A stretch of 59,454 nt of DNA from Acaryochloridaceae cyanobacterium VAR_48_metabat_390 (lineage in GTDB: Bacteria; Cyanobacteriota; Cyanobacteriia; Thermosynechococcales; Thermosynechococcaceae), in contig JANPLU010000115.1 in assembly GCA_031422435.1 (NCBI GenBank), forward strand, positions 1 through 59,454, written 5' to 3'. A program made the position numbers. Below, piece by piece: positions 3,001-6,000 of the stretch; the first letter of the stretch is position 1, and each line of letters begins with the position of its first letter.

Positions 3001-6000
3001 TGCCCTGCTGATAAAGTGTCGCCTGCGGCGTACACAACTCAATCACAAAATCTGAAGAACCTTCTTTAGCGCTAGCTGACTTGTTTCCGGCGCTGCTCAA
3101 TGAGATGCAGCGGCAGGCTCAGCACACAGCAAAATGTCAGAATGTACGAGAGCAGCATTAGAATCCGAAGGCTGCACGCTGGCGACTGAGGGAAGGCCGT
3201 ACACAATTGCTCTCCCCAGTGAGCTGAGCAGTACACCAGCCAATACACAAAGGCTAAACGAGTCAAGGTTTCTTGTGCCGCTTCTGCATCAGAGGGATCT
3301 TCGATGGGCGATCGCCCATAAAAGTAAAGTCCAGCAACTGACGCAACACAGGAAACAAGAAGAATACAATCGTGCCAGGATAGAGTTGGCATAGGTAACG
3401 CGCCACAAAAAGAGACTGTACTGCACCCGCTAGTTTAAAAGATGACGTGGCGACTTTCCCTAAAAGCCTCACAAATCTAAACTTAAAAAGGGAGCTTAAA
3501 TCAGACCAAAACCAATAAAATGCCCAGTGAATAAGCCTTTGTGGTCTGTTAATTTTTATGGAGAATCTGCCGTTTCTACAGCTGTCTCAAGGGCACCTAC
3601 AAATCTTAGAAACCTGCCCTCGAAAGTTCCAATCCGTTTTTTTAGATAACTTAACGTTTCCGCAGCCCTCTCTAGGATCAGACAAACAGGAGTTAGGGAA
3701 ACAGTTTCATCAACTGATGCAGCAGCAGGCATTGGGTCTAGACATTCAGCCCCTGCTAGACGATAGCCCAAAACTGCAGGGATGGTTTCAGCATTTTCAA
3801 GATTCACCGCCACCTTTAATGTCTAGGCAACATCGTCAAAGCGAATACTCATGCACTCTAGCGCTAGAAGAGTTTACGCTGACTGCGGTGTTTGATCTGC
3901 TGATTCAGGAGGGCGATCGCGCCCAAATTGCAGACTGGAAAACCTATCGTCGTCCCCTGCGTGCCCAGCTCATTGAGCAGCACTGGCAAACGCGGCTGTA
4001 TCTGTTTATGGCGGCAGAAGCATTGGGATATATGCCAGATCGTGTTTCGATGGTGTACTGGTTTGCAGAGTCTACCCCCGAAAACGGCGACCCTTCTCAA
4101 AGTTGGCTATCTGTAGCCTACTCTGAGTCTATGCATCAACAGACCCAAGCAACTTTGACAAAGCTGCTTAGGTCTTTAAGGAAATGGATGCAGGATTTTA
4201 CGACAAACCATCAAAACTTTCCCCAAGTTTCTCTGAGTGCTAAAAAGTGTTGGTCAAAGGCGCAGTGCTGTCCATTCGTGACCCACTGTCACCGCACGCC
4301 AGATAGTGCACGGACAGATTTAGAAGATCTGACAAACCTAGGGGCGATCGCAGAAGTTACCCTTGATTAATCGGCATTAACTGAGCATTTTTTGCTTCAG
4401 TAATAGCCAAATAAACGGCAGGTCATTAATCAAATACCGTTTCCAAAGTCGCTTAGGCTCCATTACCAAACGGTAGAGCCACTCAACGCCCATCATGCTA
4501 GCCAAACGAGGGGCGCGGGGCACAAGGCCAGCCTCAAAATCAATGGTTGCGCCAATCGCAAAAATAATATTAACAGATGTCAAATACTGCCGATATTGGC
4601 TGATCCACTGCTCCTGCTTGGGTGCTCCCACGCCAATGGCTAAAACCGTTGCGCCTGACTGATTAATTCGCGCAACGATGCGCCGACATTCTTCTTCATC
4701 TTTGTCAAATCCCAGGGGCGGAGAGTAGGCATCTATGACAATATGGCGACCCACCTTTTCATTGATGTTGACTTGAGCCTGCACAGAGGCTTCTCCCATG
4801 CCCCCTAGCAAAAATATGGTCATTTCTAGATTATCTTTATGATGCTGATAAAAAGCAGGGAATAAATCTGAGCCAGAAATTTTTTCGAGAATGGGCGAAC
4901 CTAAGAACCTAGAGGCAAAGAAAAGAATTTGGCTATCACATAATTTATAGTCTGCAATGCTGTAAGCGCGTCCAAAATCTCGATCTTTCCTAACGTTGAC
5001 AAGATGGTCAACGTTAGGTGTAAAGACAGTTCCCTTATGAAGATTATTTAGAAAATCACTCATAGAAAGATTGTCAATAGGTACGCCTAAAATATCAACC
5101 TTGCCCGTCATACAAAGCTCTGGACTGGGCGGCTTAAGATGATAGCCTTGAACTGGGCCGGTTCTAAGCTTCTCCAAAAACATAGACGTGTCAATAGCAT
5201 CAACTGATTTTGCTACAACCATTTGGTTGAGAGACCGACCCACTTCAAAAATAGAATTCAGCAGGATTTCTGAATCTAAGTTTTGAGCAGACTGATGAAT
5301 TAAGTCACCCCTAATTTTAACAAAATCGACATTCAGCTTTTCCCACTGCATAAAAGTGAGATAGTCGTTAGCAAAATTGTCTAAGATAATGGTGCAGCCA
5401 ATTTGCTTAAGATCTTCAATAAGAGCAATATGGCTTTTAATATCTTTTGAAATATTTTTCTCAGAAAACTCTAGATGAATCCTGCTGGGATCGATCTGAG
5501 TCTCCGTAATTAAGTCATAGATAAACGTCGCAATTTGACGATCTTCTAAAACTTCTCTCGAGAGATTAACAGAAAGCGTTGAGCCAAGGCTTCGATCCAA
5601 AATTCCTGCGGCTTTCTCAAGCACAAACCGATCTAGCCACTTTTCTAAACCCTCTTCAAAAATAGAGGGCATAAAGTCTCGAGGACTTTTGAGTGTGCCG
5701 CTCGCCGATCTCCACCTCAGTAAAATTTCATTATGCAGTACGGTTCCGCTGGGCAGGTTATAGACCGGCTGATACCATAGCTCAAACTGCTGGGTTTTAA
5801 GAGGAGAGGTTTCGTGCCGAGAAAACGTTTGCATTTAGAAAGATTCTATTTTCAAGCGGTGAAAGAAAAAAAGGTGAATATACAGACAGATAAAGGAGAT
5901 ATTTGAGCAATATTTTATGCTCAAATTTGAGTCGTCTGTGACGACACCATTAACCTTTGTTAGTATTCCCTAAATTCAGATTAATGTTTCTGTTCTTAAG

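Follow-up and report, generated by a model that had tools for sequence, protein, structure and literature searches.

The question raised by this locus is whether a degenerate EAL domain, placed in front of a glycosyltransferase of the WecB/TagA/CpsF family (GT26), could allow c-di-GMP to control a sugar transfer directly. The gene lies on a 59,454-nucleotide stretch of contig JANPLU010000115.1 (the window) from Acaryochloridaceae cyanobacterium VAR_48_metabat_390, and a preliminary description had proposed that its EAL domain keeps the c-di-GMP-binding residues, has lost the general base and loop 6, and likely makes a committed glycan step respond to c-di-GMP. A single stop-free open reading frame (4377-5834, minus strand) codes for a 485-residue protein with the following features.

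4377..5834, minus strand: EAL-GT26 fusion gene (P0001); single reading frame, both Pfam families above cut-off, present at full length in 24 of the 48 genomes of the family.
5127..5801, minus strand: degenerate EAL domain, residues 12-236; PF00563 at 157.6 bits; model against the FimX EAL domain (3HV8) Z 29.7, rmsd 2.7 over 238 residues.
5715..5729, minus strand: ExLxR motif E36-R40, with a metal-1 ligand and the c-di-GMP-contact Arg; E36, L38 and R40 in 73 of 74 sequences, the other being a fragment without the region.
5340..5381, minus strand: residues 152-165, the beta5-alpha5 loop (loop 6) in its replaced form; the first Asp remains, Asn153 takes the position of the second, and a family-specific conserved loop follows.
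5208..5210, minus strand: Lys209 codon, in the place of the metal-2 Glu (ProE E506, PA3825 E217); constant spacing to ProE, aligned with AEGVE/AEFVE of solved EAL domains; Lys in 69, Thr in 5 and Glu in none of 74.
5103..5126, minus strand: short inter-domain linker, residues 237-244; the segment 228-250 is of equal length in all 74 aligned sequences.
4428..5102, minus strand: GT26 (WecB/TagA/CpsF) domain, residues 245-469, of a cyanobacterial 'TPNVDH' subfamily; phmmer to TagA 7MPK E 3.7e-30, TagA Z 26.6, and the GT tree.
4935..4937, minus strand: Asp300, which aligns with Asp65, the catalytic base of TagA (numbering as given in PMC6493773); Asp in 68 and Asn in 6 of 74.
4383..4484, minus strand: C-terminal helices with R455, R462 and R466, corresponding by alignment to the appendage with which TagA binds the membrane and completes its active site.

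As first described, both domains score over their Pfam cut-offs, EAL at residues 12-236 (157.6 bits, cut-off 31.3) and Glyco_tran_WecG (PF03808) at 294-467 (168.8 bits, cut-off 27.4), with the TagA structure aligning over 245-469. The fusion is real and conserved; an assembly or frameshift artefact was ruled out by the single reading frame and the full-length matches in half of the family genomes. No transmembrane segment was found by hydropathy. An AlphaFold2 model of the two-domain chain, built with 62 of the 74 sequences as input, reached a pLDDT of 87.8 and a pTM of 0.84, weakly suggesting a fixed arrangement of the EAL and GT domains. A complex prediction of the EAL (10-238) and GT (243-485) parts with c-di-GMP and Mg, run without controls, scored 0.00 and carries no weight for or against a contact.

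Both domains are present in 73 of the 120 best relatives listed and the named ones are cyanobacterial, in agreement with the earlier count; these records come from Altericista, Acaryochloris, Petrachloros, Lyngbya confervoides and Thermosynechococcaceae bins. Within the family of the window, the two-domain matches in 24 of 48 genomes fall in 6 of 14 genera, and a search for matches spanning both domains found none in the 13 small genomes of one genus (g8). A class-wide search with a profile of the EAL part, scoring 9 candidates per genome, matched 32 of 301 genomes at 1e-55, 11 inside the family and 21 outside, and a GT26 domain was absent from all 20 that were opened of the 21 outside-family matches. 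Given the deepest-branching fusions of the P0050 type, the taxonomic range may be wider than the named records. Longer fused forms (850-2425 residues) were not found at E 1e-40, which is weak evidence, and the ESM Atlas returned generic EAL clusters only, at 0.87.

The window gene is flanked by mutL and a PD-(D/E)XK nuclease, without a glycan cluster around it; the neighbours vary between genera, where they likewise form no such cluster. Its GC content is 42.5% against 49.3% for the genome, but a recent foreign origin was rejected on account of the mutL synteny, held in 8 related loci, and the nesting of both domains among cyanobacterial sequences. At a distance of 4-14 kb from the gene, the window also has a locus of minor-pilin and pilM-secretin genes; pilin genes are linked to the fusion in 3 of 12 related loci and unlinked in other genera. 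Cyanoexosortase A adjoins the fusion in 1 of 17 loci and also stands beside one stand-alone GT. A promoter and terminator scan around the gene gave results at chance level. The genome carries 14 EAL genes, 16 frames in which a GGDEF-type motif occurs, and four Bac_transf genes for priming transferases.

The EAL domain has the barrel fold expected of its family, with Z scores of 29.8 to PdeA and about 29.8 to FimX. We aligned the 73 two-domain relatives with the query (n=74), and the residue counts of the preliminary description were reproduced: E36 and R40 are each kept in 73, and N90, E122, D152, K173, Q229 and G230 in all 74. The catalytic Glu is indeed lost throughout, position 209 being Lys or Thr in 74 of 74; this Glu was reportedly labelled the general base by Rao in 2008. 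The second Asp of DDFG, described as Asn, Gly or Ser, is so in 54, 11 and 5 sequences, respectively, and is also Asp in 3 and Thr in 1. Likewise, loop 6 is lost only in the sense that the original is gone: the DFG(T/A)GYSS loop of active phosphodiesterases is not present, and a different, conserved family loop stands in its place (N156 in 68, L159 in 73, F161 in 70, Q163 in 67, W164 in 72 and E165 in 72 of 74). The metal-1 ligands E36, N90, E122 and D152 are kept in every sequence that covers them, whereas the metal-2 ligands are absent, being N153 and K209 in the window protein, and D153 and E209 are kept together in none of the 74 members. By spacing to PA3825, whose ligands are described in PMC5301497, all the metal-1 ligands are likewise retained and the metal-2 ligands lost.

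In the active EAL enzyme ProE, 17 residues have been mutated, and D450A and E506A are reported to abolish activity (PMC7290235). These 17 residues map onto the fusion protein with two constant offsets; 13 are identical and E509 becomes D212, with D450, D472 and E506 replaced by N153, R175 and K209. The c-di-GMP contacts described for FimX, L477, R479, D507, E654 and Y673 (PMC3527489), correspond to L38, R40, D68, D212 and Y231, in a register taken from a gapless match and spacing; by this register, these contacts are kept. Across 13 pocket positions, 955 of 955 aligned cells are kept, at EAL identities to the query down to 33%, and dN/dS of the EAL domain is 0.04-0.11 (13 of 15 pairs computable). 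Retention of the core is not unique to this kind of EAL domain as judged by a sequence control, in which all 7 core residues were present in 8 of 18 unrelated degenerate EAL domains, compared with 35 of 37 in the clade of EAL domains with Lys at this position (Lys-type). The pattern of conservation indicates that the nucleotide pocket is under strict selection and that the domain is very probably not a phosphodiesterase. Since it retains the nucleotide contacts along with metal site 1 but lacks metal site 2, the domain should hold c-di-GMP without cutting it, and we consider c-di-GMP binding likely. In LapD, loop 6 acts as a dimerisation switch, as described in PMC3032553.

The GT domain scores above the family cut-off with TIGR00696 as well (109.6 against 69) and adopts the TagA fold, with Z 26.6 and rmsd 1.4-1.5 over 185-191 residues to 5WFG and 7MPK. 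The key residues listed for TagA in PMC6493773, T37, N39, D65, R83, Q167, E168, R214, R221 and R224, match T272, N274, D300, K318, Q407, E408, R455, R462 and R466 in the window protein, with Lys in the place of R83. Equivalog scores are all far below cut-off (EpsA 140.4 against 500, WecG 85.2 against 323, TarA 81.4 against 350), and the domain, classified by its profile scores, is not TagA/TarA or WecG proper, so that its step can be called committed only provisionally; in the GT tree it falls within a subfamily of cyanobacterial sequences (SH-aLRT 99). We infer that the NCBIfam EpsA model stands for the Myxococcus EpsA, which according to PMC7484181 belongs to a Wzx/Wzy pathway. The sole other GT26 in the genome is a distant TagA-like gene on contig C112. 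TagA is reported to be inactive as a dimer and active as a monomer on the membrane (PMC6493773), and a toggle of this kind could serve to control the fused transferase.

That the WecG motifs are kept, as the preliminary description had it, is true of the window protein but does not extend to the whole family. Defining decay as at least 5 substitutions at 22 GT positions, with positions and threshold of our own choosing, we found decayed GT domains in 13 of 74 members, Lyngbya confervoides WP_166278474.1 among them. These 13 retain 159 of 269 cells, whereas the remaining 61 retain 1301 of 1321. The catalytic Asp300 is Asn in 6 of the 74, all within this set, and long GT branches occur at about four places in the GT tree. 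The EAL pocket of the decayed members is untouched, with 169 of 169 cells kept, which suggests that the EAL domain has a job independent of an active fused GT. The fold of the decayed domains is still under selection, with dN/dS of 0.06-0.17; in intact members it is 0.02-0.06 and the GT is the more conserved of the two domains. Four genomes with a decayed GT carry 3-7 other GT26 genes each, none of which scored as the subfamily of the fusion (two were opened).

We searched 1.84 billion representatives with a profile, with the best 150 listed, and took the matches together with those of the class-wide search. Among the matches listed, three architectures share the Lys-type EAL, which is followed by GT26 (EAL-GT26), by a transmembrane segment and HlyD (EAL-TM-HlyD) or by a transmembrane tail alone. 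In a quick, midpoint-rooted tree of 83 domains, in which 25 of 111 ordinary EAL domains were drawn at random, 40 of 41 Lys-type rows fall on one branch (SH-aLRT 99). The GT26 fusions form a sub-branch of 17 rows (SH-aLRT 96), one of which, P0128, is a 270-residue piece without the GT, and the sister of the Lys-type branch consists of EAL-TM proteins with the Glu intact (SH-aLRT 92); two Glu-intact EAL genes head a polysaccharide export-flippase-GT2 cluster. The CapD-EAL protein on contig C82, which had been put forward as a parallel fusion, was rejected as such, since it reads EALLH, is missing the Arg of ExLxR and stands on a far branch of the EAL tree.

The EAL-HlyD proteins have Lys209 and the full pocket, and a GT2 gene lies within 6 kb in 22 of 22 intact loci examined, with a nucleotide-sugar dehydrogenase in 9 and a PL14 lyase in 6; these loci come from related genomes (Coleofasciculus, Lyngbya and kin) and are not independent events. 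A transmembrane peak follows the EAL domain in 11 of 12 of the proteins, and Pfam shows the EAL and HlyD families and no PilZ. Most HlyD-GT2 cassettes are without an EAL domain (long frames in 2 of 26 matches), and most Lys-type EAL-TM genes lie away from polysaccharide genes. The GT2 of the cassette has no solved relative at E 0.01, and its product may be called alginate-like on the strength of the neighbouring genes. A metagenome scan with one EAL-HlyD protein returned itself alone, and a single-sequence fold of the N-terminus had a pLDDT of 50.6, too low for use.

A second comparison comes from four family genomes, in which a paralogue of the same GT26 subfamily is built as MshEN-priming sugar transferase-GT26. 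All 3 that were tested scored above the MshEN cut-off of 38 (43.0-52.4), and the motif fits the description available in PMC5013675. Two of these paralogues head a Wzc-Wzx-GT4-Wzy cluster, and in the GT tree the MshEN-linked GTs separate, though weakly, from those fused to an EAL domain (SH-aLRT 76 and 79). A second kind of c-di-GMP domain is thus joined to this enzyme subfamily, and a c-di-GMP receptor role in polysaccharide synthesis is supported, at the level of comparative sequence, independently by the EAL-HlyD/GT2 and MshEN-GT26 arrangements.

The reading that we prefer, to which we give an even chance, is that this GT26 protein associates peripherally with the membrane and carries its own c-di-GMP receptor, which would control the fused GT directly. 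The GT would act early in the assembly of a Wzx/Wzy-type surface polysaccharide, whose genes would lie elsewhere in the genome, by transferring a sugar onto an undecaprenyl-PP-sugar. Binding of c-di-GMP would alter either the oligomeric state of the EAL domain or the loop that stands in the place of loop 6, and the change would pass through the short fixed linker, so that the GT would shift between a TagA-like inactive dimer and an active membrane-bound form. By analogy with other c-di-GMP-controlled polysaccharide systems, activation would be the likelier direction. More tentatively, and with rather more doubt than confidence, we propose that the Lys-type clade is a dedicated 'one-metal, Lys-plugged' c-di-GMP receptor module, which would have arisen from an intact membrane-anchored EAL heading a polysaccharide operon and been attached to two unrelated partners, namely a GT26 repeat-unit transferase and, in GT2 synthases, an HlyD subunit that resembles Alg44. 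On this view the window protein would be a GT gated by its EAL domain, through which c-di-GMP would directly control a lipid-linked Wzx/Wzy step, the one that falls to MshEN in the paralogue.

The members with a decayed GT and intact EAL also fit a different division of labour, which we regard as possible but clearly less probable than direct control, namely that the EAL domain binds c-di-GMP and acts on a separate partner (a priming transferase, Wzc, a synthase or a pilus motor) while the GT mainly holds it at the membrane near the pathway, as the transmembrane helix does in the other two architectures. The EAL domain sits just before the membrane anchor in all three architectures, and the decayed GTs keep a fold under selection. 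There is one Lys-type clade member per matched genome, so that the fusion would be the counterpart of the EAL-TM protein, and the nearby minor-pilin/pilM-secretin locus brings to mind FimX, a pilus-related EAL receptor. The pilin linkage, however, is missing in other genera, and the 61 members with nearly whole GT motifs, the greater conservation of the GT among them and the fixed linker length speak against this reading.

It is unlikely that the EAL domain is a slow or single-metal phosphodiesterase, or a binder of pGpG or cGAMP, in which Lys replaces the second metal. Metal site 1, K173, E125 and Q229 are invariant, compared with 4 of 10 kept in FimX, whose EAL domain is described as having very low activity and binding pGpG (PMC3527489), and a conserved Lys at the metal position could assume charge stabilisation; but no member keeps the D153 and E209 pair, of which either loss abolishes ProE activity (PMC7290235), Thr in five members indicates that the Lys is not essential, and LapD, which has a Lys at a metal site, is an inactive receptor. 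The replaced loop 6, strongly conserved and located on the usual EAL dimer surface, would suit a ligand-free module for protein interaction or dimerisation. The enterobacterial YdiV/RflP and CsrD are EAL modules of this kind, not known to bind a nucleotide. We regard this as very improbable for the fusion, since the invariance of R40, D68, Q229 and all the pocket residues across three architectures is hard to explain without a ligand.

To our knowledge, few c-di-GMP effectors have been characterised in cyanobacteria. If direct control is true, a degenerate EAL domain wired to a repeat-unit GT would be an added type of receptor and an added control point, and possibly a switch by which c-di-GMP controls slime production. 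The c-di-GMP control of polysaccharide synthesis, as covered in PMC8892547, acts mainly on processive synthases through PilZ domains, degenerate GGDEF domains or composite sites. The signature of metal 1 kept and metal 2 replaced by Lys can serve as a flag for the EAL-HlyD/GT2 cassette, which in mat-forming genera such as Coleofasciculus and Lyngbya is apparently undescribed. Since the fusion protein has no transmembrane segment and there is an orthologue in the cultured Acaryochloris marina, binding and regulation are directly testable.

The statement that no such fusion appears in papers has to be withdrawn. Table S1 of Agostoni 2013 (PMC3747582) lists A. marina AM1_2682 as EAL + WecB/TagA/CpsF, with 'N' ('not conserved') in the column for conservation, and its main text gave no match for WecB, TagA or glycosyl. 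This protein is very probably the orthologue ABW27684.1 / WP_063710521.1, and the protein of A. marina MBIC11017 has the same architecture with Thr, not Lys, at 209. The architecture is therefore already catalogued, in one supplementary-table row, but unstudied: our search of journals outside subscription, with the supplements of one paper, found no study of an EAL-GT26 fusion or of the EAL-HlyD form and no experiment on any fusion member.

Among characterised proteins, FimX and LapD resemble the fusion in their EAL fold (Z 29.7 to 3HV8 and 26.6 to LapD), lost catalytic residues, kept contacts and altered loop 6. Unlike them, the fusion is without GGDEF or sensor domains, is joined directly to an enzyme, and has metal site 1 fully intact with site 2 alone removed; the Lys of LapD is at the first Glu of the EAL motif, whereas that of the fusion is at the metal-2 Glu. 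The closest solved EAL domain by profile and Foldseek is of the RbdA (PA0861) phosphodiesterase type, which shares the ExLLR, DR and NLS features and is the probable ancestral type, although RbdA has DDF and AEFVE where the fusion has DNF and AKSVD. The GT shares its fold, catalytic residues and appendage Arg residues with TagA/TarA, WecG and the EpsA model, but belongs to a separate cyanobacterial subfamily and carries an N-terminal EAL domain. Alg44-Alg8, the PilZ domain of BcsA, PelD, PgaCD and NfrB all join a c-di-GMP sensor to polysaccharide machinery, as the fusion putatively does. The sister EAL-TM-HlyD proteins have the PilZ-TM-HlyD layout of Alg44 beside a GT2, as described in PMC8892547, with EAL in the place of PilZ, and would by layout work like an Alg44-type co-polymerase, although, without a PilZ domain, they are not members of that type. 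Whereas the c-di-GMP-activated synthases use PilZ, GGDEF or MshEN domains, the fusion carries an EAL domain on a non-processive, lipid-linked GT26 step.

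The gene for the EAL-GT26 fusion (window 4377-5834) has a GC content of 42.5%, versus 48-54% for the genes flanking it; besides GC, this gene displays no further sign of recent transfer. The minor pilin-like genes of the window show weak similarity to HpsC and HpsA, and these pilin genes remain linked to fumC-mutL-fusion in three related loci. A Type ISP restriction-modification specificity domain is found in a 1041-aa protein (window 30748-33873).

Features of the window, of contig C82 from the same genome and of compared loci (L numbers, positions within each locus)
Window 10241-19887: minor pilin-like genes, then pilM to secretin
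C82:29828-32650 (G000): CapD-type epimerase/dehydratase with C-terminal EAL, 941 aa
L029:742-2298, L110:6745-8418, L111:7493-9151, L112:3377-4993: three-part fusion of MshEN, priming sugar transferase (Bac_transf) and GT26
L042:7835-10903: GT-decayed fusion, then cyanoexosortase A and HpsJ-like gene
L095:8317-16677, L096:1175-10251: EAL-TM gene heading polysaccharide cluster
L155:6001, L151:3750: early-ending Lys-type EAL genes, two Lyngbya-like records
L091:8780-14023, L097:794-11163, L113-L116, L140-L166: HlyD-like/GT2/PL14 cassette

In the EAL of the CapD fusion the Arg of ExLxR is missing, as are the residues of metal site 2; this domain is probably neither an enzyme nor a canonical receptor. 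In two genomes, a Wzc-Wzx-GT4-Wzy cluster opens with the gene for the MshEN-Bac_transf-GT26 fusion; the copy in L029, whose Bac_transf part has a lower score, is not part of such a cluster. Cyanoexosortase A and the HpsJ-like gene directly follow an EAL-GT26 relative with eroded GT motifs (L042), and in the window's genome cyanoexosortase A is adjoined by a WcaJ-type priming transferase (L119:9694-11975).

The EAL-TM protein of L095 and L096, sister to the clade with Lys at the metal-2 Glu place (Lys-type), has both catalytic acids and an unusual loop 6; its gene, hosted by an early-branching family, leads a cluster for polysaccharide export, flippase and GT2. The Lys-type frames of L155 and L151 (295 and 645 aa), shorter than the EAL-HlyD form, represent either split genes or assembly errors.

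In some copies of a conserved cyanobacterial cassette, comprising an HlyD-like protein, a GT2 with a long C-terminal extension and a PL14 lyase, the Lys-type EAL sits on the HlyD protein. A nucleotide-sugar dehydrogenase is a frequent extra member, and a mannose-isomerase cupin occurs once together with a beta-helix protein of weak AlgG likeness (E 0.003). In its make-up, the cassette resembles an alginate-type synthase system.
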